The translations under genes and the position numbers were made by a program. This document shows positions 21,269 to 39,439 of a DNA stretch of 64,000 bases, one piece after another. A model generated the notes under the pieces. It was not told the origin of the DNA. It saw only the letters and a list, made by a program, of their open reading frames with translations, and made no database searches. Origin of the DNA: Candidatus Methanomethylicaceae archaeon (GTDB lineage: Archaea > Thermoproteota > Methanomethylicia > Methanomethylicales > Methanomethylicaceae); assembly GCA_026414165.1 (NCBI GenBank), contig JAOAJN010000007.1:7391-71390 (forward strand), given 5' to 3'. Each line of letters opens with the position of its first letter. The first letter of the stretch is position 1.

Positions 21269-21283
21269 TAGGAGGTGTTAATT

Positions 21284-22208: not shown

Positions 22209-24122
22209 TTATTTTTTAAGAATGGGCACCCCAAATGTCAGCTTGAAAGGTGAAAATCTCACGCCGCCATCTTCATAGAATTTGCTGAACCACTCATAGA
22301 AGTGGAGCCTCAGATCCTGCGCTAGAACCAATATTCCCTCCAGTAATACCACAAAGATGTTGCCAAGAGCCGCCAATATGGCAGAAACCACCATTCCCAC
22401 CATACCTCCCCCTGCAATTGTACCAAGACTGTAGAAAACTGCAGTCAGCTGTATGTGGGCCATCACCATGGCAAAGATCCTCAGGTATGACACGGTATTC
22501 GAAACAAAACGTATCATGGTATCAAAAACTTCAAATCCGATCTCCCCAAACACAGAGAGAAACTCCTTTCTGCCGTGTCTTATAAGTGCCCATACGGGTT
22601 TCCCGACAAGCATAAAGATCGCCGGACCGAGTATGAAGAATATTGGACCAGTGAACCACCGATTGAGATTCAGACCAAAATTAAATACGACATACATGAA
22701 AAGAAGGTACAAAAGTAATTTTGGTGTATTGACTAAAAATGCGTCTACCTTCTTCTTTTGTATCAAGTTATTTATTACCATTATAGCTAGACCTAATGAG
22801 ATCTGAGCTACACCTATGTAAAGCGAGAACTTGAACAGAGACATTAGATCTTCTCCTGGCGAGAATACAGTATGATAACCTATGTGCTTCCCAAAGGCTT
22901 CGCCATAAAGTGTTGCACCAACAATTGCCCCAGCAATTCCGCAGATCATTAGGAATATGCCGATCTTGGACATGGATTTAGTGTATTTATAGAAGATGAA
23001 ACCTAATGCGGCCAACATTAGCCCGTGACCTAGATCTCCAAACATTAGACCAAAAAAAACTGGAAAGGTAATTGCCAGAATTGGGGTGGGGTTTAATTCT
23101 GTATAGGATGGTACGCCGTATAGGTTTGTGATACTCTCAAATAACCTGAAGAATTTTGGGTATCTGAAAACCACAGGTACTTGGGGTGAAGAGTGCTCCT
23201 CTTTAGAAAAGAAGACTATGCGCCCATTGAGTCTGGCTTGGAGGTCGCCAATTAATGCAGATAAATTTTTGCTAGGGACGTATCCCTCTAAGATCATCCA
23301 TCGCTTCTCGAATGTAGCAACTTCTCTAATCGATATTAAGGAGTTGGCATCGCATAAAATCGCCTTAAGATAAAGCAACTTGGGTAGATAGGCGGTAAAG
23401 GAGCGACGGAATTCTTCATTCTTGAGGGATATCTCTTTAAGCTTTTTCTCAGCGGATTCGATGACCTTTGAAAGTTCATTTAAGTTGTCTGGCATATCCT
23501 CCAATACAGGCATTTGTGCATAGCCAGCCTCTTCTGCAGCGCGTCTTAGCTTATCCAAATCCTCCTTCATACATACTGCTAGGACCGTTGCAGGTTTCAA
23601 TGTTACAGTTAGTACTATAGAGGGGTGGGGTAGCAATAAAGAAAGAGAGGTTGGGCGATGCTCTTTTTGATATAAGGGTAAAAAAACAAGTCTTTTAAAA
23701 GAGGAGAAGATCTCGAGTGGTAGAGTTTTTTGCAGGTTGGCAATAAAAGGAGACCAAACACTAATAGAGAATTTAAGCTTCTCTTCGGTTTTAATAGAGA
23801 CGTCTATTTCCTTAACCTCGCGCTCGTGCCTACTGATCTCTTTTTCTACTTCGTCCAGAAATGAGTTCCAGTCCTGAGCTTCTATGGACACAGCCTTTGG
23901 CGGGGGCAGTTCAGATGAGCCTGAAATCACTTTAGACTGTTCGATTAATACTTCAAGACGATTGAGGAGTGCAGAGGACCTATTCAAAATATCAGATGTA
24001 GGTTCGCTGCTTTTTATAGTTATGTGGAAGGCGCCTTGCTTATTTAAAGAATCCAATACTTCTTCAGTATCACTTTTTAAGAAAAGTAAGGTAGTCTTAG
24101 ACATCCGCTCTGGGCGCAGCAT
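22209..24122 (-). CDS. atpI: A-type ATP synthase subunit I (membrane a-subunit)
   Basis: Soluble N-terminal half and polytopic C-terminal half with LRLHFYEWFSKFYEDGG. Start set at MLRPERMSK (24122), just after the atpK stop. Confidence 0.85.
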   Translation of the reverse strand: MLRPERMSKTTLLFLKSDTEEVLDSLNKQGAFHITIKSSEPTSDILNRSSALLNRLEVLIEQSKVISGSSELPPPKAVSIEAQDWNSFLDEVEKEISRHEREVKEIDVSIKTEEKLKFSISVWSPFIANLQKTLPLEIFSSFKRLVFLPLYQKEHRPTSLSLLLPHPSIVLTVTLKPATVLAVCMKEDLDKLRRAAEEAGYAQMPVLEDMPDNLNELSKVIESAEKKLKEISLKNEEFRRSFTAYLPKLLYLKAILCDANSLISIREVATFEKRWMILEGYVPSKNLSALIGDLQARLNGRIVFFSKEEHSSPQVPVVFRYPKFFRLFESITNLYGVPSYTELNPTPILAITFPVFFGLMFGDLGHGLMLAALGFIFYKYTKSMSKIGIFLMICGIAGAIVGATLYGEAFGKHIGYHTVFSPGEDLMSLFKFSLYIGVAQISLGLAIMVINNLIQKKKVDAFLVNTPKLLLYLLFMYVVFNFGLNLNRWFTGPIFFILGPAIFMLVGKPVWALIRHGRKEFLSVFGEIGFEVFDTMIRFVSNTVSYLRIFAMVMAHIQLTAVFYSLGTIAGGGMVGMVVSAILAALGNIFVVLLEGILVLAQDLRLHFYEWFSKFYEDGGVRFSPFKLTFGVPILKK

Positions 24123-24136
24123 CAAAGACACCCAGA

Positions 24137-24547
<411 letters not shown>

Positions 24548-24673
24548 TTATAAAACTTCCTTATATAATTCATCCTTCTTCTGTTCTATTCTCTTGGATA
24601 AATTAAGGAGTGAGTCGTTTATCTCCTTCTTTATTTCTGACCTTTTGGACTCGTACATACTCTTTATTCGCAT
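24548..24673 (-). CDS. candidate 41-codon ORF between atpD and atpK (MRIKSMYESKRSEIKKEINDSLLNLSKRIEQKKDELYKEVL)
   Basis: Hand-translated. The ATG lies 10 nt after the atpD stop, on the same strand as the operon. The predicted peptide is charged and helical. It is too short for the ORF track and has no family support. Confidence 0.25.
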   Translation of the reverse strand: MRIKSMYESKRSEIKKEINDSLLNLSKRIEQKKDELYKEVL

Positions 24674-24683
24674 GATGAAATCG

Positions 24684-25322
24684 TCACCCATAGGCCACCA
24701 CCTGTTTTGTCTTCTTTTCTAATAGTGTTTTTACTTTCTTCACCCTAACAAATTCTTCCCTGTCTCTCTCCTCCAAGATCGCAGATATCATTGACACCAT
24801 ATTCTGGTATCTTGGTATTAGAAACTGCTCTAAAGCGTTAATCCGGTGCTGAGTCTTCTTGACTTCCTCGACGAGTCTTATTAGCACGCTTTCCAGCTCG
24901 GCAAGTCTCAGGGTCATAGGCAGGATCTCGTCAAACTTCTCAATAAATTGGTCCAAAAGAATTGTAGGTTTGGATATACCATAAGTCAGCGGGTTAGACT
25001 CTTTTAAGAGTTCGAGCGAAAGTACTGATACGCCCATAATCTTCTTCTTCGAAACTGTTATATCATAATCATATCGAGGAGTTTTACTTATCAAGCTCAT
25101 TTCCCTTGCACCGATAATTACGCTTGCGGCGTCTAATAGCGCATAGGCGCTTCGCAGTTGTTCATTCAACTGAGATCTGAGCTTCGTTGCCTCACCTATC
25201 CTCCTGTTTAATTCCAAGAGCAGGATCTCGCGTTTTTCTTCCAATAGGTCGTGTGCCCTCCTGAGAAAAGCGAGGGTCCTTTTGAAGCGGATCAAGTTCA
25301 TTTTTGAGGGGGCGACCCTCAT
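24684..25322 (-). CDS. atpD: A-type ATP synthase subunit D (central stalk)
   Basis: MRVAPSKMNLIRFKRTLAFLRRAHDLLEEKREILLLEL. The internal ATG at 25322 lies 11 nt after the atpB stop. Confidence 0.85.
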   Translation of the reverse strand: MRVAPSKMNLIRFKRTLAFLRRAHDLLEEKREILLLELNRRIGEATKLRSQLNEQLRSAYALLDAASVIIGAREMSLISKTPRYDYDITVSKKKIMGVSVLSLELLKESNPLTYGISKPTILLDQFIEKFDEILPMTLRLAELESVLIRLVEEVKKTQHRINALEQFLIPRYQNMVSMISAILEERDREEFVRVKKVKTLLEKKTKQVVAYG

Positions 25323-25333
25323 TGACAAAGGGC

Positions 25334-26728
25334 TCACGTCCTCTTGTAATACATTTTTACGAAACGATCTGGAATTCTTGTAAGTTCGGTTTCTGGTAGA
25401 AGCGAGAGCTGCTCCCATGCCAGTGTTAAGGTGGTCTCAAGGCTCCTGTTCTCATCAATCCCTTGGTTCAAGAATTTGCGTTCGAAGCTGTCTCCGAAGC
25501 GGAGGTAGGCCCTGTCTTTCTCTGTCAACCCTTCCTCGCCTATTATTGCACTCAGGGACCTAAGTTCTTGAGCCCTCGCGTATGCTGAGTAGAGTTGGCT
25601 TGCGACTGGCCCATGATCCTCCCTCGTCTTTCCTTTGCCGATTCCGTCTTTCATAAGCCTTGACAGGCTTGGAAGGATGTTGATCGGGGGGTATATGCCG
25701 CGCCTATGCAGGTCTCTGTCCAAGACGATCTGACCTTCAGTGATGTAGCCTGTTAGATCAGGGATAGGGTGAGTGATGTCGTCGTTTGGCATGGTTAGTA
25801 CAGGCATCTGGGTTATGCTACCTTTTCTTCCTTTGATCCTGCCAGCACGTTCGTATATTGATGCGAAGTCACTGTACATGTACCCCGGGTATCCTTTCCT
25901 GCTGGGCACTTCCTCCCTAGCGGCGCTTATCTCACGCAGTGCCTCTGCGTAGTTCGTCATGTCCGTCAAGATCACCAAAACGTGCATATCTTGCTCAAAT
26001 GCAAGGTATTCCGCAAGTGTGAGGGCGCTCCTCGGGGTGACCAAACGCTCCACGGGCGGATCGTCAGCCAAATTCAGGAATATGGCCGAGTTCTTAAGCG
26101 CTCCAGACTCTTCGAAGCTCCTCTTGAAGAAAGCAGCCTCGTCGTGCTTAATACCCATGGCAACGAATACTACCGCAAAGCTCACCTCCTCTCCAACGAT
26201 CGTTGCTTGTCTCGCGATCTGAGTTGCGAGAAGGTTGTGAGGTAGACCAGAACCTGAGAATATAGGCAGTTTCTGCCCTCTCACTAATGTGTCCATACCA
26301 TCGATAGCAGATACCCCTGTTTGTATGAACTGCGTTGGGTAGTCCCTAGAATAGGGATTCATTGGAAGACCATTTACATCCCTATACTCTTCTGTGAAGG
26401 GCGCAGGTCCACCATCTATGGGCTCTCCGAGACCGTTAAAGACTCTTCCTAACATTTCAGTGGAGAGAGGTATTGTTAGGGGTTTACCAAGGAAGCGAAC
26501 CGAGGTGGAGGTTGTGGATAAACCAGTCGTTCCTTCAAAGACCTCAACCGCAGCCACGCCCCTGTTTATCTCGAGCACTCTCCCCCTTCTTAGTCCCCCC
26601 TCCGCGTCCTTTACTTCAACAAGTTCGTTAAAACCTACATCCGATACGCCCTCCACGAAGATCAGAGGACCGCTTATCTTCTGTACGCTTCTATATTCAA
26701 CACTAAAGCTCATATCAGATCCCCTCAC
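25334..26728 (-). CDS. atpB: A-type ATP synthase subunit B
   Basis: [46 protein letters not shown]. Confidence 0.95.
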
Positions 26729-28487
26729 CAGTCAGTCGTTTAATATCAGCCTGAATCCTTTCTAGGAATCGATCTATCTCCTCCGCCTTCTCATTTGGTA
26801 CGGACATCCTAACTTTCGCCAAATCAGTAACGGATGTTAATGAAGATATCTTGGAAACGGGAGTCCCCTTCGAAAGAGCTTTCAGGGCTATCTCGTGGAA
26901 TTGGAGTATTGCCGACAAAAGTTTGAACTGCTTTTCTGGGGAAGAATATGTGTCTACGGGGTCGTAGGCATTCTGCTGCAAGAAGCCCTCCCTGAGGAGT
27001 CTCGCAGTCTCCATTATCAGTTTCTCAGTTTCTGGGAGAGACTCTATGCCCACCAGGCGTATGACTTCCTTGAGGTCGTCCTCCTTCTTCAGGATGTCAA
27101 GCGCTTTGAGGCGGAGCTCCTTCCACCTGCCATTGGTCCTCTCATTCCACCACTTCTCCACATAGTCAGTATATTCGGAATAAGATGTTAGCCAGTTTAT
27201 CGCAGGATAGTGGCGCATGCTTGCCAAAGCGCTGTCCAGCGCCCAGAAGGCTCTGACGAACCTCTTGGTATGAACAGTAACTGGTTCTGAAAAGTCGCCA
27301 CCAGGCGGAGATACCGCCCCTACAAGTGTTACCGATCCGTAAAGTCCGCTGAGGGACTTCACCCTACCGGCTCGCTCGTAAAATTCACCTAACCTTGATG
27401 CGAGGTATGATGGGTAGCCTTCCTCGGCAGGCATCTCCTCAAGCCTGCCTGAGATCTCCCTCAATGCTTCAGCCCAACGACTAGTAGAGTCTGCCATAAC
27501 TCCCACGTTATATCCCATATCCCGGAAGTATTCAGCGATCGTCACTCCTGTGTATATGCTGGCTTCCCTCGCTGCCACAGGCATGTTGCTTGTATTCGCT
27601 ATAAGGACGGTCCTCTCCATTAGAGGTCTGCCACTCCGAGGGTCTTTCCATTCGGGGAAATTAATGAGTACCTCAGTCATCTCGTTGCCGCGCTCGCCGC
27701 AACCAATGTATATAATCACCTCGCAGTCAGACCATGCTGCCAACTGGTGAGAGGTTATTGTCTTGCCTGTGCCGAATCCCCCAGGTATGCTGACCGCCCC
27801 GCCCTTCGCAACGGGGAAGAACATATCAATGATTCGCTGACCAGTGATCAATGGTTCTGACGGTTCAAGGCGTTCGATGTATGGGCGTGGCTTTCTTACG
27901 GGCCATTTATGATACATCTTGAGCTCGTAAATCTCTCCGTCCTTGGAGAGTTTGGCGATGCAATCTTCTATTGTGTATTCCCCTTCGTCGGCGATAAAAT
28001 CGATTTTACCTTCTCTATTCGGAGGCACCAGTATTCGGTGCTCCAGCAAAGGCGTCTCTTGGACTTTGCCTACGATAGTGCCAGGTGCGGCGTAATCGCC
28101 TATCTTCTTCAAAGGAACGAAGTGCCACTTCTTATCCCTAGGGAGCGCAGTTGCCTTAACCCCCCTTCTGACGAAGTCGCCCGTGGCATCCCTTATTACC
28201 GTCAATGGGCGCTGTATACCGTCAAATATGCTCTGTAGAAGACCTGGACCCAACTCCACGGCAAGGGGCATCCCAGAACCTTTTACGGGCTCACCTAGCT
28301 TCAGACCCGCTGTATCCTCATAAACTTGAATGGTGGCCAAGTCGCCCTCCACTCTGACGACCTCGCCGATCAGTTCCTCGTTTCCCACCATTGTTAATTC
28401 ATGCATTTCTAAACCTGCAACTCCTTCGGCTTGGACCACAGGACCGCTTATTTTTGTGATTCTGCCAATTTTTGCCATATAAATCAC
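26715..28487 (-). CDS. atpA: A-type ATP synthase catalytic subunit A
   Basis: Walker [39 protein letters not shown]. At 590 aa there is no intein-sized insertion. Confidence 0.95.
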
Positions 28488-29098
28488 CCAAAGAGGATTG
28501 AGGCAACTCTCGATCGCAACATATGTCTTTCCTCACTCAAGATACTCTCAAAGGTTCGATCTAAGAATATTTTTTTGTCTGCTGAGACTATGATGAAGCC
28601 GCCTATATCTATGGGGTGCGGCTTGATTTGTAAATCCTTTCCAAAGATCTTCTTAAGATTGCCAAGACCAATTCTTTTTATATCCTTCTCCCTCATCAAT
28701 ATCTCACCCACTGGGACGGCTTTTGATAGTTTTTTCAGGTTGTTGACTAGGTCTGAGATGTACTCCTCAGTGTCACAATAACTAACTAGCCTTGAGCGTG
28801 CTTCTTTGAAGGCTCTTTCAACGTAGGACTCTCTCAAATTCAGAAGGTTCATGCGTGCCTCCACTTCAGATCTTGAGATCTCCTTCCTAGACTCAATCTC
28901 GGCTTTCTCATGATAGGTCGAGAGGATCTCCTGACATCGGTTTATAGAGAACCTTTCAGATTCTTCTAAAGTACTAACAACTTTCTCTGCAGCTTCATTA
29001 AGGGTCGAGAGAGCCTTAGACTTTGCCTCATCAAATATTTTGTCCACCATCTTCTTGAAAGCTTCGATCTGTGAATCCAAGGAGGGTTCTTGGCTCAT
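28484..29098 (-). CDS. atpE: A-type ATP synthase subunit E
   Basis: 204 aa with a long N-terminal helix and a C-terminal [22 protein letters not shown]...ILFG. Overlaps atpA by 4 nt. Confidence 0.75.
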
Positions 29099-29394
29099 AC
29101 CTTGACACCCATCATCCGGCTTATCATTGACTTCAAATCAACCTCCGCAGAGGTCTTTCTTCCAGGGACTTCCATTATAATGGGTAAGACTCGCTTGATC
29201 TTTAAAGAGGAGACGATCTCCGGAGCCATGGAGGAGTAGTCGCTGTCAAGCAAGATAACTCCAACATCGTCCATCTTCAACGCATTCTCAAGGGATGCTA
29301 AAAATTCCTCCTTCGAGGAGACAGGGACGCCCTTGACCCCTGAGAGGCTGTAGCCCTGCGATAGAGTGGCGTCTCCAATGAACAGGATCTTCAT
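29095..29394 (-). CDS. atpF: A-type ATP synthase subunit F
   Basis: MKILFIGDATLSQGYSLSGVKGV; 99 aa. Overlaps atpE by 4 nt. Confidence 0.8.
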   Translation of the reverse strand: MKILFIGDATLSQGYSLSGVKGVPVSSKEEFLASLENALKMDDVGVILLDSDYSSMAPEIVSSLKIKRVLPIIMEVPGRKTSAEVDLKSMISRMMGVKV

Positions 29395-29413
29395 CGATTA
29401 TCACTTTATTATA

Positions 29414-29677
29414 TTACTGGGTTTCAGATCCTATAAGAGCTTTTACCTTCTTTAGTTTTTCTATTAGCCTGTCGTACTTCGCAACCGGCTCAACTATAAG
29501 ACCCAGGTCTTGAATGGCTTTGATGCCATCTATGGAGTAGATAGGTGCCTCTATCTTGATAGGCTCGTCAAACGGATTGCCCACGACATAGTCCCTATAA
29601 GGCAGGTTGGCCCTATGCTCAACAACATAACCACCGAGGGTTATTGCGTGTTTTCCTCTAATAACGATTTTTGGCAT
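29414..29677 (-). CDS. small soluble hypothetical protein, last gene of the hydrogenase operon
   Basis: 87 aa from the internal ATG at 29677 (MPKIVIRGKHAITLGG...), preceded by AGGAGGTG. It lies 11 nt after the NuoH-like gene and 19 nt before atpF. I recognise no family. Confidence 0.5.
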   Translation of the reverse strand: MPKIVIRGKHAITLGGYVVEHRANLPYRDYVVGNPFDEPIKIEAPIYSIDGIKAIQDLGLIVEPVAKYDRLIEKLKKVKALIGSETQ

Positions 29678-29688
29678 AGTAACACCTC

Positions 29689-30732
29689 CTACAAGCTGAC
29701 AGAAAGAATCAAAGCGAGAACGCCAAGAGCCGAGAGACCCAAAGTTGCAGGATATATCTGTCGGAAGGTCAGTATTGGGGAGAATGCAACTAATATAGCC
29801 ATTGCTACGGGTAAGACAAGACTCAAAACCATGTTCAGTATGAGGCACAAGGGCATGAATGGATCAAATGGAATCCCAATAAATAGTGTGACAAATATGC
29901 TCGAGAGGGCGAATAATAGAAGGTTCCGCATCAGATAATAACCAGCTCTCAGTTTCGAGGCATACTCTAGGACGCCCCCCTCTATGACGTCAACCTTTGC
30001 TTTGAGAATATTGAATGGTCTTTCGTTTAGGAGCATGAGATAGCCCACAAAATAGACTACTGCTGCCAAAAAGCCAGGCACTGTGAGTAGAACTGGATTT
30101 GACGGTAGAGGTAAAGAGAACCAAGAGGAATTGAAGTAAACTGGATTCTGGACTCTTATCAGATCAGAGATCATACCACTTCTGGCAGCTACGAAAGGTA
30201 CTAAGAGGGCGATATAAAGGGGTAGCGAGCCAATTGCCATCATCTTTAGAGCTCTCTCGGCCGAGTGTTGTTCAACGAACTCCCTTATGACGCCCTTGAT
30301 CTTTGCTCCCTTGACAAGATCGTTTATGGGCATGGGCGTGGTAAGAATTGACTGGGATTGCGATCCCATGAGGACGTACAAGACCTCCTCCAACTTGAGA
30401 AAGCCAGCTAGACCAAGGATGCTGCCCCATCCCAAAACACCCCACCAGTATGGGGTGGAGAACAATAACAATAGGAGTACAATCGCCACTCCGAGCCAAA
30501 CCAAGGACTTGTAGAAGAAAGGCATCTGTGCGATGGGTTCCGCCTTCCCTTTGTACCAGAACTTCAGGACTGCCCACCAACCAGGAGTTAAGACTGGAGG
30601 ACCAATCCTCTGCTGAACTCTTGCCTGAAGTTTTCTCTCTATGCCAGGAAGTACAAGCGAGTAGAGGGTTGCAATTATAGCTGCCACTATTGAAGAAAGA
30701 ACAAGTCCAGCGATAAACAATATAGCATCCAT
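29689..30732 (-). CDS. NuoH/MbhM/HycD-like membrane subunit of a group 4 hydrogenase
   Basis: LPGIERKLQARVQQRIGPP at the N-terminus; polytopic; 347 aa. Confidence 0.8.
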   Translation of the reverse strand: MDAILFIAGLVLSSIVAAIIATLYSLVLPGIERKLQARVQQRIGPPVLTPGWWAVLKFWYKGKAEPIAQMPFFYKSLVWLGVAIVLLLLLFSTPYWWGVLGWGSILGLAGFLKLEEVLYVLMGSQSQSILTTPMPINDLVKGAKIKGVIREFVEQHSAERALKMMAIGSLPLYIALLVPFVAARSGMISDLIRVQNPVYFNSSWFSLPLPSNPVLLTVPGFLAAVVYFVGYLMLLNERPFNILKAKVDVIEGGVLEYASKLRAGYYLMRNLLLFALSSIFVTLFIGIPFDPFMPLCLILNMVLSLVLPVAMAILVAFSPILTFRQIYPATLGLSALGVLALILSVSL

Positions 30733-30733
30733 A

Positions 30734-31921
30734 CTATCTCCTCCATCCGTACTTTCTCACAACCTCAATCTCACTCATAATCCGCGTCTTGCCAGATTCA
30801 ATTATCTCGACGCGGTTGCAACAGGTTAGGCAGGGATCGCAGCTGGCTATTGTTAATACTGCGTCTGTAACGTGATCGCCTATGCATGCCTTTTCCATGG
30901 CAGCCAAGTTGGTTGGTGTGGGAGTGCGTATTTTATAACCCCTTATGAGTCCTTGCGAATCCAAACTGTAAGAATGCATAAGCTCTCCTCTGAAGGTCTC
31001 AAAATACATTGTAGTGTAGTCCATCTCACCTGGGATCCAATCCCTATTGACGATTGGTCCCTCGGGAAGGTTCTTCACTACTTGGCGTATAATCTTTAGA
31101 CTCTCAATCACCTCGAGGGCCCTTTGAACCACTCTCGCTTTGTTGTCTCCTTCTTTGAGAACAATTACATTGAAGTCAAACGGTTTGTATTCGTACATCA
31201 TTCTTCTGATATCATAATCCCAGCCCGAGGCCCTACCATTAGGTCCTGTAGCATGATATTTTATAGCGTCGTCTTTTGATAGGAGACCAACTCCAGCCAA
31301 CCTCGACATCACAAGTGGGTCGGCGAGAATCCTATCCACGTACTCTAAATATTTCTTCTCGAAGTCATCAAGCCTTTCTAGAATAACCCTCTTCAGAGAT
31401 TCAGTAAGATCCGACCTAGGTCTTATTCCACCAATCACTGGAACGGAAGGCATGACCCTGTTGCCGCCTATATAAGCCATAAGATCCATGAATACTTCCC
31501 TAAGGAGGAACGAGCGCATCGAGAAAGTCTCGTGCCCTAGAATCTCGAAGGCGTGCCCAAAGAATATCAGATGGCTCGCAATACGCTGAATCTCATTTAT
31601 CAGCACCCTGATGTAATTGGCTCTATCAGGAACCTTTATCTTAAGACCAGATTCGACTACGCGAACGGCGTTCCAAGCATGCACATTAGAGCATATTCCG
31701 CAGACCTTCTCAGCGATTAGTAGAGCCCGCTCTACTGGAAGACCTTCAAATAGCCTCTCGATCCCTCTGTGGGCCATATTTATTGTTAATTCACAGTCCT
31801 CAACGATCTCGTCATTTACAAAGAGTCTGATCCTGAATGGTTCGATCAGTGCAGGGTGAACTGGACCTAATGATAGTTCTTTCTCCACAACACTCTCTTT
31901 ATCTTTTGTTCTCTCGGTCAT
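30734..31921 (-). CDS. [NiFe] hydrogenase large subunit, group 4 (NuoD/MbhL/EchE-like)
   Basis: LGPVHPALIEPFRIRLFV, HRGIERL, N-terminal ligand pair in EKVCGICSNVH, and C-terminal pair in SCDPCLTCCNR. Start at the ATG at 31921 (TAAAATG junction with the small subunit). Confidence 0.85.
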   Translation of the reverse strand: MTERTKDKESVVEKELSLGPVHPALIEPFRIRLFVNDEIVEDCELTINMAHRGIERLFEGLPVERALLIAEKVCGICSNVHAWNAVRVVESGLKIKVPDRANYIRVLINEIQRIASHLIFFGHAFEILGHETFSMRSFLLREVFMDLMAYIGGNRVMPSVPVIGGIRPRSDLTESLKRVILERLDDFEKKYLEYVDRILADPLVMSRLAGVGLLSKDDAIKYHATGPNGRASGWDYDIRRMMYEYKPFDFNVIVLKEGDNKARVVQRALEVIESLKIIRQVVKNLPEGPIVNRDWIPGEMDYTTMYFETFRGELMHSYSLDSQGLIRGYKIRTPTPTNLAAMEKACIGDHVTDAVLTIASCDPCLTCCNRVEIIESGKTRIMSEIEVVRKYGWRR

Positions 31922-31922
31922 T

Positions 31923-32375
31923 TTAAGGTGCCTCCATGAGTTTTGGTACTCCCTTAACCGCCCCCGCGATGATATCTTCGGGTCTCGGGGCACAGCCAGG
32001 CACTTTTACATCCACTGGGATTACCTTTTCCACCGGACCTACCACCTCAGCATTTGCTCCGATGTCGCCAACCATATTTGTGAACACGTTGCCATTGACG
32101 GCGCAGGAACCTACTGCTAGAACCGCCTTAGGTTCCGGTATTAGTTCGTATAGTTTTTTGAGGGGTTCCACCATCTGCCATGGAACACATCCAGTCACGA
32201 TAAGTACGTCCGCCTCCCTAGGGTTCCATGTCAAAAGAATCCTGTACTGTTCCAAGTCGTATCTTGGAGAGAGAAGGGCGTTTAATATCTCTATGTCGCA
32301 GCCGTTACACCCTTCGGTGTAAACTAACATGGCATGTATGGCATTTTTTCTTGCAATTGCCTTCAAGCCCATCAC
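31923..32375 (-). CDS. [NiFe] hydrogenase small subunit, NuoB/MbhJ-like
   Basis: Four cluster Cys residues: GCNGCDIE, AVGSCAVNG, VPGCAPRPEDI. Confidence 0.85.
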   Translation of the reverse strand: MMGLKAIARKNAIHAMLVYTEGCNGCDIEILNALLSPRYDLEQYRILLTWNPREADVLIVTGCVPWQMVEPLKKLYELIPEPKAVLAVGSCAVNGNVFTNMVGDIGANAEVVGPVEKVIPVDVKVPGCAPRPEDIIAGAVKGVPKLMEAP

Positions 32376-32863
32376 TTCTTACCTCCTCTCAGAAATTCAA
32401 CGGTCTCTGGCGGTATCAACTTCTTAAGTTCCTCAATCTTCTCGGGAGGAGCCCTTATCGGTTTCTTAAGGATTTCCTGTAGGGTGAGTTTGGGGCTACC
32501 CACGTCCCTGGCATGAATTGGTGCCGCCTCCCCAAAGACTGAGTATATGGGGCAGAAATCATGACAATTTAGGCAAAATACACACTTCATGAGATCTATG
32601 CGGGGGACTTGTTCACGCATGTACCCCTCAGCAATCTCTACAGGTTTCTCGAGTTTCATCATAGTTATTGCCTGGGTGGGGCAGACTTTGGCACAGCCCC
32701 CGCAACCTATGCACATCTCGTCTAACACAGTATCCCAAGCAGGAACAGATAGTGTGAGGACCTTTTTACGTATCTCCAAGCTCGTCGCTCTGTCGGACCT
32801 CAAAACTACCCTAACAAAATTCCTGTAAGCTCCCTGGAGCATCAGTCTCAAGAAGGCGATCAT
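32372..32863 (-). CDS. 2x[4Fe-4S] NuoI/MbhN-like ferredoxin subunit
   Basis: CIGCGGCAKVCPTQAI and RIDLMKCVFCLNCHDFCPI. Confidence 0.7.
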   Translation of the reverse strand: MIAFLRLMLQGAYRNFVRVVLRSDRATSLEIRKKVLTLSVPAWDTVLDEMCIGCGGCAKVCPTQAITMMKLEKPVEIAEGYMREQVPRIDLMKCVFCLNCHDFCPIYSVFGEAAPIHARDVGSPKLTLQEILKKPIRAPPEKIEELKKLIPPETVEFLRGGKK

Positions 32864-33309
32864 GGTATCACCACCGCCTCACCAACATATCCAGCGACCC
32901 TTTTTGTGCTGTAAACCTTAACAACGCGGATGCAGTCCGTGGGGCATGTTGTGGCACAGGCACCACAACCTATGCATTTGGATTCATCAACATAAGCCAA
33001 TCCGTCCTTAAGGTATACGGCATGGTCACCTTTCAGCGTTATCTTGCAAGCATCAACACACAGACCGCAGCCGATGCATAGGTTTCTATTTATGTAGACA
33101 GACCATCGCAACAATTCCCTGTTTGGTAGGACATTCAAAATAGGTATGGCACCAACCGGGCAGTGAGAAGCGCAGAGCTCACATAGTATGCATTTTGAAA
33201 TCTCGACGACCGGTTTTTTCTCTACGATAGGGTTAAATGTTATTGCATTTGTAGGACAGACCTTAACACACGTCCCACACCTTATGCACAAGTCTGTTGG
33301 TTTGCTCAA
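32860..33309 (-). CDS. polyferredoxin, 4 predicted [4Fe-4S] clusters
   Basis: CIRCGTCVKVCP, CILCELCASHCP, CIGCGLCVDAC, CIGCGACATTCP. Confidence 0.8.
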   Translation of the reverse strand: MSKPTDLCIRCGTCVKVCPTNAITFNPIVEKKPVVEISKCILCELCASHCPVGAIPILNVLPNRELLRWSVYINRNLCIGCGLCVDACKITLKGDHAVYLKDGLAYVDESKCIGCGACATTCPTDCIRVVKVYSTKRVAGYVGEAVVIP

Positions 33310-33944
33310 AGGATATTACCTCCCCAACTTACACTTTTAATAGAAAGAGCCCCCACGGGGCAAGACTTTATGCAGCGACCGCACATGACACAGTACCCAG
33401 CAGGGTATCGGTCTTTAAGATACATCGTCTGTGGCGGACATACGCGTACGCATTCCCCGCAGAGAGTACAGAGTTCGGGGTTCAATTTGATCCTATTCAT
33501 CTCAAACTTCAGTGCGCCGTTCGGACACACCCTCGCGCATAGTGAGCAGAGAGAGCAGTTAATTATTGTTGGGCGGGCATCGCCCTTCTTAATCTTTAGT
33601 TTGCCCTCGTACAACTGTATAGCTCCGACCGGGCATTTCTCATAACACTCCATACACATTACGCATGTGACCTTTATTATCCTTTCAGCGTACGACTGTG
33701 TGTTCAAGTAAAGCTTTCCGGCTTCCTCAGGTTTGATCTTCCCCTCATAAGAATCGATGGCCTTAACAGGGCACACCTCGGCGCATAGGTTGCAATGTGT
33801 GCAGAGACCTCTCTCTTCAATGGTGAACTTTATCGCATCCGTGGGGCAAATGTTCCTGCATCTACCACAGAGTATGCATTTCGACATGTCCCGGAAGATC
33901 TTTCTCTTTGAGACTTGAACTGTCTTTGCAACTTGAACGCTCAT
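33306..33944 (-). CDS. polyferredoxin, 6 predicted [4Fe-4S] clusters
   Basis: CILCGRCRNICP, CTHCNLCAEVCP, CVMCMECYEKCP, CSLCSLCARVCP, CTLCGECVRVCP, CVMCGRCIKSCP. Confidence 0.8.
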   Translation of the reverse strand: MSVQVAKTVQVSKRKIFRDMSKCILCGRCRNICPTDAIKFTIEERGLCTHCNLCAEVCPVKAIDSYEGKIKPEEAGKLYLNTQSYAERIIKVTCVMCMECYEKCPVGAIQLYEGKLKIKKGDARPTIINCSLCSLCARVCPNGALKFEMNRIKLNPELCTLCGECVRVCPPQTMYLKDRYPAGYCVMCGRCIKSCPVGALSIKSVSWGGNIL

Positions 33945-34399
33945 TTTGTAACCACTGCCTCCACTTTTTTGTCCTTAAGTATCTCTTTGAGCCTCTCGGG
34001 AGTGGCGATCTCCAGAACAACTGAGTAGTCGATCGGACGAGTAATGTATCTGCCAAGATCGAATCGGGCGTTTTTGGGGCAGACCTTAACGCATAATCCG
34101 CACCTTACACAGATCCCCCTAACCCTTTCCTTCTTCAGATTATCATCAAACACGATCTTAGCAAATCCGAAAGGGCAGTGCTTGACGCAAAGACCGCAGA
34201 GTGTGCATCGGGCTCTGTCCACATACCAACCTCCAAACCGATTCTTCCTTATGGCTTGGGTCGGACAGACGCGTGCGCACTCCCCACAAGTCGTACAGCT
34301 AAATGGAATTCCGTCGGGATGCTTGATGCAGTCTGTAGGGCATGCCTCCCAGCATTTTCCGCATTTGTCGCACTCAGATGTTGTGAGGTACATCATCAC
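33941..34399 (-). CDS. polyferredoxin, 4 predicted [4Fe-4S] clusters
   Basis: CDKCGKCWEACP, CTTCGECARVCP, CTLCGLCVKHCP, CVRCGLCVKVCP. Confidence 0.8.
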   Translation of the reverse strand: MMMYLTTSECDKCGKCWEACPTDCIKHPDGIPFSCTTCGECARVCPTQAIRKNRFGGWYVDRARCTLCGLCVKHCPFGFAKIVFDDNLKKERVRGICVRCGLCVKVCPKNARFDLGRYITRPIDYSVVLEIATPERLKEILKDKKVEAVVTK

Positions 34400-34656
34400 T
34401 CACCCTTCAGAGCCTTACCTATTAGGAGCCCAATAGTAGCACCAATCAGAGGGGTGGCGAACCCCAGACCAGGCATTATGTAGCCCCCGTATATGGAGTA
34501 TGAAAACATAAATACTCCAAAGAGCAGGGCACCGACAATACTGAATGAGATTACCAATACTGTTGTCCCCTTGGAGATCTTTCCTGAGAGCTGTGTTCCA
34601 AAGAGAATGCCCAATATTATCGAAATTATAAACGGGGTTATCTCTCCAAGCATCAT
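34396..34656 (-). CDS. small membrane protein (about 3 TM) of the hydrogenase operon
   Basis: 86 aa from the internal ATG (MMLGEITPFIISIILGILFG...). Has a 4-nt overlap with the first polyferredoxin. Confidence 0.5.
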   Translation of the reverse strand: MMLGEITPFIISIILGILFGTQLSGKISKGTTVLVISFSIVGALLFGVFMFSYSIYGGYIMPGLGFATPLIGATIGLLIGKALKGE

Positions 34657-34657
34657 T

Positions 34658-35509
34658 TTACTTTCCTCCTTTCTCTTGGTCTTCCGGAGGCTCGGACCAG
34701 CCGTAGAGGAAGGCAAAATAGATTAGCCCAATAGCGCCTACAACATTGAATGCTTCTGCAATATTTATCAAGGGTATTATGCCAGGGGTGGAGTAAAATA
34801 CTCCCTCTTGGAGGTATAATGAGAGCCTGAACGGATCGCCGAATATGCTGTGGAGGGTTGGTGAGACAAGACTCCAGATATCCGCACCCACGTTATATTG
34901 CCAATATCCCGAAGTTAGAAATCCTGGTAGACCTAAAAGGGTGTATCCCCCTAGCCCGACAGCACCTATGCCGATAAGAAAGCGCTTGCCAAATTTTATC
35001 GGGTTATCCTTTCCGTAAAATATGGCAGCCAGTAAGTAAGCAGAAGTCATTATAACTCCGCACTGGAAGCCTCCTCCTCCAGATGTAGAGGATGCTGTGA
35101 CTACCATAATGCCATATGATAGCAAGAGTATCGCAGCTGGAAGACCAAGGTACTTCAAGATAACTGTCAAGGACTCGGTCCGGTACTCTAAAGGCGGAGA
35201 GGTTGCTGGAGCCTCCTCCGAATAATGTTTCATTTGAACCACCCCTCTGCCTATAACAAGGGCAGACGCCACAGCACCCACATAAATAACAGCAGTCTCT
35301 ATCAGTGTATCAAAACCACGCCAATCGTAAACCCAAGTCGCTATATTATTTGGAGCGACTAAATAAGCCAGGATATTGTAGATCCTGCTTATTCCGGGGC
35401 TCACATTCCCAGCTAGTTTTTCCAATGATGACATTAACCCTACGCAAATTATGAGTAGAGCGATTACGGCAATTATTCCCCTTTTACCCCTAAGTTCTGA
35501 CGGATCCAT
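34658..35509 (-). CDS. MnhB/MrpB-domain membrane protein (MbhE/F-like)
   Basis: WVYDWRGFDTLIETAVIYVGAVAS resembles the MnhB RxFDTLGE motif; polytopic. Confidence 0.65.
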   Translation of the reverse strand: MDPSELRGKRGIIAVIALLIICVGLMSSLEKLAGNVSPGISRIYNILAYLVAPNNIATWVYDWRGFDTLIETAVIYVGAVASALVIGRGVVQMKHYSEEAPATSPPLEYRTESLTVILKYLGLPAAILLLSYGIMVVTASSTSGGGGFQCGVIMTSAYLLAAIFYGKDNPIKFGKRFLIGIGAVGLGGYTLLGLPGFLTSGYWQYNVGADIWSLVSPTLHSIFGDPFRLSLYLQEGVFYSTPGIIPLINIAEAFNVVGAIGLIYFAFLYGWSEPPEDQEKGGK

Positions 35510-35512
35510 TTA

Positions 35513-35839
35513 TCATCCCCCCCATAAGGTTACAGCTATTATAATTGCAAAGTAAATTACAACCCAGTAGAGGACTCTGTTGAGATCGTTGCTGTTTTCT
35601 TTTTCCAAGGTGACTATCAGAGGAGCAAAATAAAGTGTTCCCGCGATTGCCGCGATAAGCAAGACCATGCCCAAAGGTATAGAGAATATCCTAAAGAAGG
35701 AGGCAAGAATTAGCGCAAACACTAAAGACTGGAGCTCTCCTGTCATATATCCTGTCATCATGTTAGTATAGCCGTTACCCTCTACGAAAGAGCTTATCCA
35801 TTTCTTAACCTTATCAAACAGAGTGTCTATAGATACCAT
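35513..35839 (-). CDS. small membrane protein of the hydrogenase operon (MbhI-like position)
   Basis: 108 aa from the internal ATG at 35839 (MVSIDTLFDKVKK...), with 3 hydrophobic segments. Confidence 0.5.
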   Translation of the reverse strand: MVSIDTLFDKVKKWISSFVEGNGYTNMMTGYMTGELQSLVFALILASFFRIFSIPLGMVLLIAAIAGTLYFAPLIVTLEKENSNDLNRVLYWVVIYFAIIIAVTLWGG

Positions 35840-37335
35840 GGTATACTCACCGCCTGTGCAACGGGTGTTATAAAACTCACAACAATATTGGGATAAACCC
35901 CAATGATCAGTGTGAGGGCAACAAAGACCCATAGCCCAATATAGAGGGATCTTGGAACCTTAACCTCCGCAACGGGTTCTGAAGTTTCCGGAGGCTTTAA
36001 GAACAATCTGTAAACTGCCCTGAAGAGAGCTATGAATGTTGTTACTGAAACCATCAGGATTACAGCGGCCACCTCCGGGAGCCCAGCCTTAAGAGAAGCT
36101 TGGATCAGTATAAGTTCGCTTTGGAAGCCGTTGAATGGAGGTATTCCGGAGGCCGCCATTGTGCCTAGAATAACAGCCATTCCAAGCCAAGGTGCCCTTT
36201 TGGCTAAACCCAAAGAATTCCTTGTTGAGGTCTTCCCTCCAAAGTAGTAAAGTGCCTCACAACAAAGTAGCAACACGGTCATGTAAATCACATCATTAAC
36301 AGCCTGAAATATGCCCCCAACAAGTCCTTCGGTTGTACCCAGAGAGATCCCAACTGTAACAAGTCCGCTATGGCTAACTATGAGATATGCCAAGATCCAT
36401 CTGAAGTCGGTCTGGATTAGAGCCATCACAACGCCCAACATCATAGTTATGATGCTTATTGCTAACATTACTTCCCTTACAAAAGGTAGCATGCCGAAGA
36501 TCTGTAGCATTACAATACCAATGGCGACAAGCATCAGTTTTGACTGTGTCTGAAGCATTGCTGTGCCGTGCGGAAAGGATGCCCCGTATACCTCTGATTT
36601 AAGCGGGTGAATTGGGGCAAGTCCGCCGGCATATATCCAAGAGAGCACAAAGAATGCAAAGGCTACGTAAAGTATGATGGACATCTCGCCAAGGTTGACG
36701 GACTGAAGATATCTTATGGCATCTGAGATGTTCGAATATCCAGTAAGACCCAATATTAGAGCTAGTGCGATAGCGAGACCTGCGCCGCTGAGGGCGGAGA
36801 AGAAGGTATACTTTAGGGCAGCCTTATGACTCACACTTGTCCCAGATCCGACTACAACACCTGCTACAACCAAACTACCAATTTCCACAGCGATCCATAG
36901 ATGGTAGAGGTCATTAACCATGATAATTATAGCTGCGGACGCAAATAGCAGGAAGATCATGCTCATGTATGGACCCTGGCGTTTTGTTAGACCGCTGGAG
37001 GCAACAGCAACCACAAATATCAAGATCAGTGACATCACGAATATCATTACTTGCTGGAGGGGACCGAAATAGAATTCAAGTGCCAACCGCCAAGCTGGAA
37101 AACCAGGGTCGAATGTAAAAGTCAGAGTCTCTGGGCGCAAGGCGGGTTGTCCAGTAAACCAGTGGTATCCATAGGAGGACAATGATGCTATTAGTGCAAG
37201 GCATACGGCAGAAACGATCGATATGATCTTTATGAGGCGCGACCTATTGTAAATGAAGTTAACCACAACCGCAACTATAATAGGGATCACTACAAGTAAC
37301 GGAATTGACCAAAGGTTTGATGGATATGCACTCAT
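35827..37335 (-). CDS. MrpD/NuoL-N-like antiporter subunit (MbhH-like)
   Basis: 502 aa with about 14 TM segments. The composition is typical of proton-pumping antiporter-like subunits. Located between the MrpC-like gene and small TM genes. Confidence 0.85.
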   Translation of the reverse strand: MSAYPSNLWSIPLLVVIPIIVAVVVNFIYNRSRLIKIISIVSAVCLALIASLSSYGYHWFTGQPALRPETLTFTFDPGFPAWRLALEFYFGPLQQVMIFVMSLILIFVVAVASSGLTKRQGPYMSMIFLLFASAAIIIMVNDLYHLWIAVEIGSLVVAGVVVGSGTSVSHKAALKYTFFSALSGAGLAIALALILGLTGYSNISDAIRYLQSVNLGEMSIILYVAFAFFVLSWIYAGGLAPIHPLKSEVYGASFPHGTAMLQTQSKLMLVAIGIVMLQIFGMLPFVREVMLAISIITMMLGVVMALIQTDFRWILAYLIVSHSGLVTVGISLGTTEGLVGGIFQAVNDVIYMTVLLLCCEALYYFGGKTSTRNSLGLAKRAPWLGMAVILGTMAASGIPPFNGFQSELILIQASLKAGLPEVAAVILMVSVTTFIALFRAVYRLFLKPPETSEPVAEVKVPRSLYIGLWVFVALTLIIGVYPNIVVSFITPVAQAVSIPWYL

Positions 37336-37706
37336 CGTCGCTCACCCTTTAGTACCTTAGAAGCTTTAAGTGTGCCATACCGCCTGTAGAGCATTATTGC
37401 CAAAGCAACCAGTATTGCGGTGGTGCTCACACCTATGACGATGTTAGTTAAAACGATTCCGACTGGAAAGACAAGAGCTGCCCTCGCCGCAAATTCTGAA
37501 ACCGACATTCCAGGGATCAGTATGGGGACGATGCCACCCTCAACATAGCCCAAAGCTACCAATAGTAAATTCACACCATCAGAAAGCAATGTAAAAGATA
37601 TTATTTTTTTGATCAGGTTATCCAAGAAAAGCATGCCTGCAATACCAATAACTACAAGTGCAGCAGCCGCAATGAAGCCCAATAGTTGGATTGTGACTTC
37701 TATCAA
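37332..37706 (-). CDS. MrpC/NuoK-like membrane subunit (MbhG-like)
   Basis: 124 aa, 3 TM; IISFTLLSDGVNLLLVALGY. Confidence 0.75.
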   Translation of the reverse strand: MIEVTIQLLGFIAAAALVVIGIAGMLFLDNLIKKIISFTLLSDGVNLLLVALGYVEGGIVPILIPGMSVSEFAARAALVFPVGIVLTNIVIGVSTTAILVALAIMLYRRYGTLKASKVLKGERR

Positions 37707-37966
37707 TCTTCTTCAGTCCTCCTTGTTTTGAATATTCCCAGAATGATGATTCCTGGCAGGAGCACGGTGCCAACAATTGCCTGGGTCAAACCAAGATCTG
37801 GTGCTAAGAGAGCTTGAAAGAAGAATGCTAGAGCTATGCTCTCTGCGCCTGATATGAAGGCGGCCCTTAGAAGATCTTTTTGAAGTAGAGCTGCTACTGC
37901 GCCCACAGTTATTGCAACCACCATAACATAAGCCATCACAATAAAACTTGAAGACAGTTCGATCAT
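37703..37966 (-). CDS. MbhD-like / DUF4040 (MrpB N-terminal-like) membrane subunit
   Basis: 87 aa; LLQKDLLRAAFISGAESIALAFFFQALLAPDLGLTQAIVG. Confidence 0.6.
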   Translation of the reverse strand: MIELSSSFIVMAYVMVVAITVGAVAALLQKDLLRAAFISGAESIALAFFFQALLAPDLGLTQAIVGTVLLPGIIILGIFKTRRTEED

Positions 37967-38445
37967 TTTTCCAACCTCCTCTGATAGCTATAATAATAGG
38001 CATTTGCAAGAGCGTTTCCGCAGAACGGTATGAGGACGAAAAAGAAGAAGCCAACGGCAACTAAATCAAGCCTAAATATCAACAATCCTCCGAATATCAT
38101 GACCAAAGAGGCCACGGTATCTATGATGCCAGTTATGTGGTTCCTTGCATAGAAGATGTTTGGACCATATTCGTCTCCAAATCTGAATAGGCCTATGGCA
38201 GCACCTATCATAGGCACGACTCCAGCGAACATTATTCCGCCGGCACCAATCTTGCCAACAACACTAACCGCTGTATCAAATGGGACCCCGTTGAAAACCA
38301 GAATGATTGCCAACACTACAAAAACTATTATAAGCGATGGTATGAGTTTGTTTGGGTCTATTACGAAAGTGCCCTTCTTTATATTCCATGCCACGAATGC
38401 AATTATAGCGAGCCCATATAGTATCACAAAGATCTCGTCGATCAT
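37963..38445 (-). CDS. MrpG/MnhG-like membrane subunit with N-terminal extension
   Basis: GAAIGLFRFGDEYGPNIFYARNHITGIIDT resembles the MnhG GLLRFPD..R.H motif. At 160 aa it is longer than the usual ~110-120 aa. Confidence 0.6.
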   Translation of the reverse strand: MIDEIFVILYGLAIIAFVAWNIKKGTFVIDPNKLIPSLIIVFVVLAIILVFNGVPFDTAVSVVGKIGAGGIMFAGVVPMIGAAIGLFRFGDEYGPNIFYARNHITGIIDTVASLVMIFGGLLIFRLDLVAVGFFFFVLIPFCGNALANAYYYSYQRRLEK

Positions 38446-38756
38446 TCGCCCTCCTCCATCCTGAATAATCTTGCAAAGATTATCGTGCCCACGGCGCCCA
38501 AAACAAGAAGTGCGATCGCAGTATCTCTAGCGAACTCAACCTCAAATATGATCTGAATGATGTATAGGCTGACGCCTGCAGCCGTTGTGAGGGCGCTTAC
38601 GCCCATCAGAGAGGTTACCGCCTCACCTTTTAATGCGAGCCTTAGCGCGCCCAGACCAGCTATCGCGACGGCCACCATAAAGGTAAATGCGCCCCAAAAG
38701 AACACCGAGTCGGCTAGTGATGTCAATGACGCGACATCCATCATTTTTCTAACCAC
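38442..38756 (-). CDS. MrpF/MnhF-like membrane subunit
   Basis: 104 aa, 3 TM. Sits between the MrpE-like and MrpG-like genes. Confidence 0.6.
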   Translation of the reverse strand: MVRKMMDVASLTSLADSVFFWGAFTFMVAVAIAGLGALRLALKGEAVTSLMGVSALTTAAGVSLYIIQIIFEVEFARDTAIALLVLGAVGTIIFARLFRMEEGE

Positions 38757-39046
38757 CTCTCAACATGAGGTTCTAATGGAATTATCTCTCCCCGGGTTCT
38801 TGGGTTAATAGCGCCCACGTAAAGCCGTTTTATAGGTACATCTACTTCGATAGTTACAGTGCCAGGAGTATATGTAATGCTGTTTGCGAGCATTGTTTGC
38901 GAGATAGGTTTTGTAAGGACAGAGTCAATGGGAATAATAACCGGGTCGATATCCCCATTAAAACACCTTTTTGTGACGTCTATAATGGATGCCATTATTT
39001 CCCTTATCAAACGTAACCAAAAACGAACTCCCCACATAAAAGCCAA
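38741..39046 (-). CDS. MrpE/MnhE-like subunit (MbhA-like)
   Basis: MLANSITYTPGTVTIEVD matches the MnhE ANSITLTPGT motif. Confidence 0.65.
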   Translation of the reverse strand: MAFMWGVRFWLRLIREIMASIIDVTKRCFNGDIDPVIIPIDSVLTKPISQTMLANSITYTPGTVTIEVDVPIKRLYVGAINPRTRGEIIPLEPHVERWLEK

Positions 39047-39052
39047 ATTAAA

Positions 39053-39337
39053 TCACCTTGCAACTTTTTTCAGACTTTCGAGAAACTTCCTTCCGTAATC
39101 TAAGTATATTCCTTCGTATCCAGGTTTGACTTCAATTGCCATACTGCGGTCCTTACCATCGCCTACATGAATTATCAGGTGAATTGTCCTGCCCATCACT
39201 TTTTTGTGCAGGTGAATAACTTTCTTTGATGGATCTTCAAAGGCAATTTGATAATTTTCGGAGGATGCGACTTCTTTTATTTTTTCGAAGAGGGCAGAAC
39301 CATTAATGTAGAACCTTGCAAAGATAGGGGGCGCCAT
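39053..39337 (-). CDS. small soluble hypothetical protein immediately upstream of the Mrp module
   Basis: 94 aa from the internal ATG at 39337 (MAPPIFARFYINGSALFEKIKEV...). Its stop lies 6 nt before the MrpE-like start. I recognise no family. Confidence 0.45.
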   Translation of the reverse strand: MAPPIFARFYINGSALFEKIKEVASSENYQIAFEDPSKKVIHLHKKVMGRTIHLIIHVGDGKDRSMAIEVKPGYEGIYLDYGRKFLESLKKVAR

Positions 39338-39439
39338 TTTTGCACGTCCCTGTGATAACCAAGTTTTATAGCAGAACGTATTAATAATTTTTTGCATAAC
39401 CAATGCAATGATGATCGAGAGGGGATACAAACGAGGATT

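Follow-up and report, generated by a model that had tools for sequence, protein, structure and literature searches.

A locus in the genome of a Candidatus Methanomethylicaceae archaeon raises the question of whether a membrane-bound [NiFe] hydrogenase with Mrp-type membrane genes, several polyferredoxin genes and no recognizable NuoC subunit represents a new architecture or a member of a known family. The locus occupies positions 29414-39337 of a 64,000-nucleotide (nt) stretch of contig JAOAJN010000007.1 (positions 7,391 to 71,390, assembly GCA_026414165.1); this whole stretch is called the window, and all coordinates refer to it. A first-pass annotation had read the locus as an undescribed group 4 hybrid, in which an Mrp module of the Thermococcales Mbh/Mbs type was combined with polyferredoxins of the methanogen Eha/Ehb type. 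Our analysis indicates that it is an ehb operon, encoding energy-converting hydrogenase B ([NiFe] group 4i in the HydDB nomenclature), from an archaeon of the Methanomethylicia (Verstraetearchaeota), a reading to which we assign a probability of about 0.93. Gene identity, gene order, cofactor motifs and family membership were observed directly.

The locus is made up of 18 tightly packed, co-directional open reading frames (ORFs) on the minus strand, and the coding density of the interval is essentially 100% on that one strand. Nine junctions are 4-nt start/stop overlaps with the gene starts used by the first-pass annotation, so that both of its counts were reproduced; the EhbA/EhbB junction becomes a tenth if the gene starts of a 93%-identical metagenome-assembled genome (MAG) are adopted. 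The same arrangement was found in more than 20 independent MAGs, and an assembly artefact is therefore excluded. An Rfam scan detected no RNA family in the window.

Two ehb loci served as references, one from a complete Methanobacteriales-like genome (L029) and one from Methanobacterium alcaliphilum (L031), and the proteins of the window were compared with those of the M. alcaliphilum locus by all-against-all phmmer searches. The first ten genes of both reference loci encode, in order, MNHE, MrpF, EhaC/PhaG_MnhG, MbhD, Oxidored_q2, Proton_antipo_M, a small protein of the MJ1308 family, a second small protein, MnhB and a third small protein; genes 11 to 16 encode a 453-amino-acid polyferredoxin, a two-cluster ferredoxin, Oxidored_q6, the NiFe large subunit, NADHdh and EhbP. 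Seventeen of the 18 genes mapped in the same order onto M. alcaliphilum ehbA-P as best reciprocal partners, the exception being the gene that we call orfX, and the same collinear mapping was obtained against L029. The ehbA-P set was thus recovered in its conserved order, with H and I fused, K split and J weakly matched, and the Ehb-specific subunits EhbP, EhbG and EhbF were all identified. As these Mrp-type genes, and their order, are also those of canonical Ehb, a full Mrp module is normal for Ehb and is not an import from Thermococcales Mbh.

The hybrid reading draws on two observations: Pfam labels the membrane genes with Mrp and Mbh family names, and the closest solved large subunit is MbhL of Pyrococcus furiosus (6cfw, 158 bits). 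MbhL ranked first, however, only for want of any Ehb or Eha match in the copy of the PDB that was searched, and the large subunit scored 441 bits against Methanobacterium EhbN compared to 158 bits against MbhL. The one-to-one synteny with canonical Ehb loci refutes a joining of two systems, and the gene-order comparison found a characterized subgroup with the same gene content, an outcome that the first-pass annotation had itself named as speaking against its proposal. Ehb of this lineage is moreover already in the literature: eha/ehb genes were reported from Methanomethyliales (PMC6421429), and Methanomethylicales were included in a concatenated Ehb tree and in a subunit-by-subunit analysis with gene-cluster diagrams (PMC9635834). 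A hybrid enzyme is therefore regarded as highly improbable.

Comparison with the related systems leads to the same family. Canonical Ehb (EhbA-Q of Methanobacteriales and Methanococcales, group 4i) shares with the locus the gene content and order from A to P, the Mrp-type arm, the complement of 14 plus 2 clusters, EhbP and the lack of NuoC. The locus differs from it in that EhbK is encoded by three genes, EhbH and EhbI are fused, EhbC is extended and EhbN has a tail of about 25 amino acids; in addition, no ACT-domain gene follows ehbP, orfX is an extra gene, and the next genes downstream form an A-type ATP synthase operon. Mbh of P. furiosus (PDB 6CFW, group 4d) is likewise a ferredoxin-linked group 4 [NiFe] hydrogenase with an Mrp-derived membrane arm, but it has MbhK, which is NuoC-like, and no polyferredoxin, whereas the locus has no NuoC domain and carries 14 additional clusters on three proteins. 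Accordingly, neither of two features looked for as marks of Mbh/Mbs, an MbhK-like NuoC subunit and a single two-cluster NuoI-like subunit without polyferredoxin, was found. Eha (group 4h), the sister family of Ehb, also has polyferredoxins, EhaP and EhaQ, with 6 and 10 clusters. Eha is not known to have a NuoC homologue either. The locus was set apart from Eha by its Ehb-family matches (EhbP, EhbF) and its ehb gene order. An Eha/Ehb-like pattern of polyferredoxins without NuoC, which the first-pass annotation had also recognized, was in this respect borne out.

The catalytic module contains the three subunits that had been proposed for it. EhbM, the NuoB-like small subunit (31923..32375), matched Pfam Oxidored_q6 (E 4.6e-31) and Methanobacterium EhbM (9e-64); EhbN, the NuoD-like [NiFe] large subunit (30734..31921), matched Complex1_49kDa and NiFeSe_Hases and was closest to EhbN (M. 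alcaliphilum, 3e-135, 441 bits); and EhbO, the NuoH-like membrane anchor (29689..30732), matched NADHdh (1.5e-17) and Methanobacterium EhbO (2.7e-81). EhbN carries both Ni-Fe ligand motifs, L1 (CGxC) and L2 (DPCxxC): when homologues from four lineages were aligned with it, the cysteines of CGIC (C74/C77) and DPCLTC (C364/C367) were invariant, as was the arginine of DPCxxCxxR. Identity to the EhbN proteins of Methanobacteriales was 51-53%; among the large-subunit matches, those from Methanomethylicia were 65-93% identical, and those from Altiarchaeota and Methanobacteriales 51-57%. JGI gives the name 'energy-converting hydrogenase B subunit N' to many EhbN homologues, including those at 74-79% identity.

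The large subunit also matches NuoD and FpoD models, as would be expected of a non-hydrogenase relative (Mbx/Mbs/Fpo-like) that performs no H2 chemistry. Conservation of all four Ni-Fe cysteines and of the DPCxxCxxR processing motif argues against such an enzyme, as do the homology of the protein to EhbN and the fact that the operon shows neither a signature nor a partner gene of the quinone or phenazine type, and we consider the chance of it minimal. The locus is thus predicted to encode a genuine membrane-bound hydrogenase of [NiFe] group 4 whose Ni-Fe ligands are intact, as the first-pass annotation had held. The EhbN proteins of Methanomethylicia continue for about 25 residues after DPCLTCCNR (30734-30820, minus strand in the window), compared to about 7 in Methanobacteriales and none in another lineage. 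The tail implies that an endopeptidase removes a longer extension.

Three consecutive polyferredoxins with 4, 6 and 4 CxxCxxCxxxC motifs, followed by a two-cluster NuoI-like protein, had been described as a 14-cluster wire that pointed to an unusual electron partner. The motif counts were confirmed, each motif standing for a [4Fe-4S] cluster, but the wire proved to be the known EhbK cut into three genes. All three Fer4 ORFs aligned one after another, in collinear order and with no overlap, to the one EhbK reading frame of L029. Fragment 1 (33941..34399, four motifs; Methanobacterium EhbK, 4e-56) aligned to its N-terminal third, fragment 2 (33306..33944, six motifs; M. alcaliphilum EhbK, 2e-53) was collinear with the middle and fragment 3 (32860..33309, four motifs; M. 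alcaliphilum EhbK, 2e-37) with the C-terminal part. The total of 14 clusters (4+6+4) is that of Methanothermobacter EhbK, which is 14[4Fe-4S] (PMC3087415), and M. alcaliphilum EhbK contains 56 cysteines, or 14 x 4. The NuoI-like ferredoxin subunit EhbL (32372..32863; NCBIfam NF004914, 193 bits, cutoff 163; Methanobacterium EhbL, 5e-48) adds two [4Fe-4S] clusters. The three polyferredoxins are therefore pieces of one EhbK, and the 16-cluster wire is the canonical complement of a 14-cluster EhbK and a two-cluster EhbL.

Because the pieces are collinear with a single Methanobacteriales EhbK and each lies in a different frame, they could be taken for one ehbK broken by frameshifts in a single MAG assembly. 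However, ehbK is split throughout Methanomethylicia, into two or three genes. The 4+10 form, in which fragments 2 and 3 are fused, was found in Methanosuratincola, Methanomethylicus and most other Methanomethylicia; the 4+6+4 form was found in the clade of the window and a few more, with at least nine independent loci (L001-L005, L008-L010, L018) and L030 showing the same three-way split. The pieces in the window are joined by 4-nt overlaps, and Shine-Dalgarno-like sequences (GGAGG/GGGAGG) precede the starts of fragments 2 and 3, with GGGAGG upstream of the TTG start of fragment 3. The recurrence of the split in independent assemblies, the 4-nt overlaps and the Shine-Dalgarno-like sequences together argue for a genuine gene fission and against a sequencing artefact, for which we see scarcely any chance.

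A different condition of the polyferredoxin was seen in two Ehb-like loci, from an uncultured archaeon (L025) and an Altiarchaeota genome (L026), whose large subunits are 51% identical to that of the window. No EhbK-type polyferredoxin was found beside EhbL in either, only the two-cluster protein, a result that is weakly supported for L026, where the sequence upstream of EhbL is only about 300 bases long. The pattern recalls the loss of EhbKL reported for Theionarchaea (PMC9635834).

The first-pass annotation could recognize no NuoC subunit, and our searches gave the same result. At E<=10, no Pfam Complex1_30kDa (NuoC) match was obtained in the unassigned ORFs, an extended 170-amino-acid upstream ORF, the large subunit or most alternative-frame segments. 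The latter were X-joined stop-to-stop segments of at least 45 amino acids from positions 29300-39700 on both strands; about 730 amino acids of plus-strand segments, each of at most about 85, were left out. The remaining annotated ORFs gave no NuoC match either, in a Pfam search at E<=0.01 only. With the coding density close to 100% on one strand, there is no room elsewhere in the locus for a gene of NuoC size. The ehb loci of L029 and M. alcaliphilum also have no NuoC gene.

Two small proteins were considered as cryptic NuoC analogues and rejected. The AlphaFold2 (AF2) model of orfX matched only domains of the KA1/AMPK/BamC type (TM-scores 0.6-0.76). The model of EhbP had no PDB match (best E 5); it is uncertain, as one of five models was confident (84.9 compared to 60-67 for the others).

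The same two proteins had been noted as small soluble orphans that bracket the operon. The one at 29414..29677 is no orphan: it is the Ehb-specific subunit EhbP, with a match to PF10622 Ehbp ('Energy-converting hydrogenase B subunit P'; 4.3e-19, 68.8 bits, cutoff 27) and to Methanobacterium EhbP (1.1e-20), and NCBI already gives the name EhbP to a 98%-identical protein. The description held for orfX, a soluble protein of 94 amino acids encoded directly upstream of ehbA (39053..39337), which matched no Pfam or NCBIfam family. It is conserved nevertheless: in all complete Methanomethylicia loci orfX precedes ehbA by 9-15 nt, at 54-87% identity, and its alignment has 45 invariant columns. An NCBI protein from a 'Ca. 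Methanomethyliaceae archaeon' shows 100% identity to orfX. A profile search of 1.84 billion representative proteins returned only seven matches, three of which look spurious, being partial, repeated stretches in proteins of 346, 1168 and 3045 amino acids. No counterpart was found in the Methanobacterium ehb locus by phmmer, and orfX is specific to Methanomethylicia. Its AF2 model (mean predicted local distance difference test score, pLDDT, 83) has a beta-alpha-beta4-alpha fold that resembles the KA1, AMPK-alpha C-terminal and BamC N-domains and not NuoC. The protein may be an extra subunit or an assembly factor. The ATG of orfX is preceded, at a distance of about 30 nt, by a TATAAAA box, and the transcript may therefore begin with this gene.

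The membrane module, which had been described from the sequence as Mrp-like, was confirmed gene by gene with Pfam and NCBIfam models, together with two small hydrophobic proteins. EhbA (MnhE/MrpE-like, 38741..39046) matched MNHE (1e-15), NF004922 (105 bits, cutoff 99) and M. alcaliphilum EhbA (2.6e-27). EhbB (38442..38756), an MrpF-like membrane protein, matched MrpF_PhaF (2e-4) and Methanobacterium EhbB (1.3e-14), and the MnhG-like membrane protein EhbC (37963..38445) matched PhaG_MnhG_YufB over residues 72-151 (2.4e-7) and Methanobacterium EhbC (4.2e-13), the N-terminal extension amounting to about 70 amino acids. EhbD (MbhD/DUF4040; 37703..37966) was identified by MbhD (1.5e-13) and Methanobacterium EhbD (6.7e-23); EhbE (NuoK/MrpC-like; 37332..37706) by Oxidored_q2 (1.3e-17), NF005618 (134.7 bits, cutoff 107) and Methanobacterium EhbE (5.8e-38). 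EhbF (35827..37335), of the MrpD/NuoL antiporter-like type, matched Proton_antipo_M (2.9e-27) and Methanobacterium EhbF (1.8e-91).

The remaining genes of this module are small or fused. EhbG (35513..35839) is a small membrane protein with two hydrophobic segments and a phmmer match to Methanobacterium EhbG (1.3e-7); PF27305 (MJ1308) was detected on its 108-amino-acid counterpart in the 93%-identical MAG and on Methanobacterium EhbG. The MnhB-domain protein of 283 amino acids (34658..35509), with MnhB in its C-terminal half (residues 124-260), matched both EhbH (1.1e-16) and EhbI (1.6e-20) of Methanobacterium and is therefore an EhbH-EhbI fusion, as already reported for Methanomethylicales (PMC9635834). 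EhbJ (34396..34656) is a small hydrophobic membrane protein (grand average of hydropathy 1.27) at the position equivalent to that of EhbJ.

Several points weigh against the assignment to Ehb or limit what it covers. The group 4i label was drawn from gene content, gene order and sequence identity. The best NCBIfam model for EhbF was 'energy conserving hydrogenase EhbF' (NF004920, 7.6e-120), but its 401 bits fall below the equivalog cutoff of 578, which makes the protein a divergent member. The homology of EhbJ is only weakly detected, yet EhbJ was its best match (E 0.023 in a 19-sequence database). One gene, orfX, stands outside the ehbA-P set. Furthermore, no ACT-domain gene (presumed EhbQ) follows ehbP, its position in Methanobacteriales, where ATP synthase subunit F is found instead; nor was EhbQ recovered as orfX, which had no phmmer match to the ACT protein of the Methanobacterium locus. 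The subunits chosen for Ehb phylogeny, the conserved A-P set (PMC9635834), do not include EhbQ, which is therefore not a core defining feature of Ehb. Finally, the direction of catalysis, the coupling ion and co-transcription with the ATP synthase are not fixed by sequence.

The 24 closest loci (L001-L024, 65-91% identity), taken from species-representative genomes, all belong to MAGs of Methanomethylicia/Methanomethylicota or to less precisely labelled Thermoproteota/Nitrososphaerota bins, and include Methanosuratincola petrocarbonis LWZ-6, M. verstraetei LCB70 and Methanomethylicus mesodigestus. Ehb is already known in Methanomethylicia, and public annotation already uses Ehb names. The main text of the earlier subunit analysis mentions neither the fission of EhbK nor the linkage to ATP synthase (PMC9635834); these are small additions and not a new architecture.

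The linkage was found on the downstream side of the operon. The stop codon of ehbP is separated by 19 nt from a series of A-type ATP synthase genes on the same strand, which encode subunits F, E, A, B, D, c and I (22209..29394, minus strand; Pfam ATP-synt_F and vATP-synt_E, with the full order taken from the 93%-identical MAG), while atpC (21275-22201, plus strand) is divergent from the others. AtpF and AtpE followed ehbP in all Methanomethylicia loci examined, and the linkage was absent from the Methanobacteriales loci. The ATP synthase genes are reported as context and not as members of the Ehb enzyme. On the upstream side lies a divergent gene (39392-40717, plus strand) for a protein of the TIGR00375 family (235 bits, below the cutoff of 327), whose counterpart in a related MAG carries Pfam MJ0043_C. 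Farther away, in a single ORF of 832 amino acids (3574-6072, minus strand), a complete aldehyde:ferredoxin oxidoreductase (AFOR_N and AFOR_C; residues 6-607) and a 3-hexulose-6-phosphate synthase domain (residues 614-821; 204 bits against TIGR03128 HxlA, cutoff 200) are fused. By analogy with Fae-Hps fusions, this protein could channel formaldehyde from the reverse ribulose monophosphate pathway to a ferredoxin-reducing oxidoreductase.

The most likely function of the enzyme, as judged by homology, would be that of a reversible, ion-translocating ferredoxin:H+ oxidoreductase. EhbN and EhbM would provide the [NiFe] site and the proximal cluster, where H2 is oxidized or evolved; EhbL and the three EhbK polypeptides, with 2 and 14 clusters, would form the electron path on the ferredoxin side; EhbO would anchor the peripheral arm; and EhbA-J would make up a membrane arm of the Mrp type that translocates ions and is built around EhbF, its only antiporter-like subunit. 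The reaction, Fd(red) + 2H+ <-> Fd(ox) + H2 (Fd, ferredoxin), would be coupled to the translocation of Na+ or H+.

Members of Methanomethylicia, both cultured and inferred, are methyl-reducing methanogens that depend on H2. In an organism of this kind, ferredoxin reduced by Mvh-Hdr bifurcation would be re-oxidized by Ehb, with evolution of H2 and formation of an ion gradient for the ATP synthase encoded downstream. The opposite, anabolic direction, in which the gradient drives electrons from H2 to ferredoxin, has been demonstrated genetically in Methanococcus. In CO2-reducing methanogens, Ehb supplies anabolism with reduced ferredoxin at the expense of the ion gradient (PMC3087415), whereas in the methyl-reducing Methanosphaera it was proposed to harvest reduced ferredoxin from Mvh-Hdr as a sodium gradient (PMC7485788). 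Because these organisms reduce methyl compounds and the ATP synthase genes are consistently adjacent to ehb, the energy-conserving direction is probably somewhat the likelier of the two here, and the anabolic direction is possible in this organism. It is rather unlikely that the Ehb of Methanomethylicia is a functionally distinct variant, in which orfX would be a new peripheral subunit or assembly factor, the EhbK modules would be exchangeable or sub-stoichiometric, and ehb would be co-transcribed with the ATP synthase genes as one bioenergetic unit; such co-transcription would mark Ehb as the primary ion pump of these methyl-reducers and not an anabolic enzyme.

The main value of the analysis is a correction: Mrp-type subunits together with polyferredoxins and no NuoC are the normal pattern of Ehb. 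Three minor points may interest specialists, given that the copy of the PDB searched yielded no match to an Ehb or Eha sequence: the cutting of EhbK at constant module borders (4 / 6 / 4) in this clade, the conservation of orfX and the invariant linkage of ehb to the ATP synthase genes.

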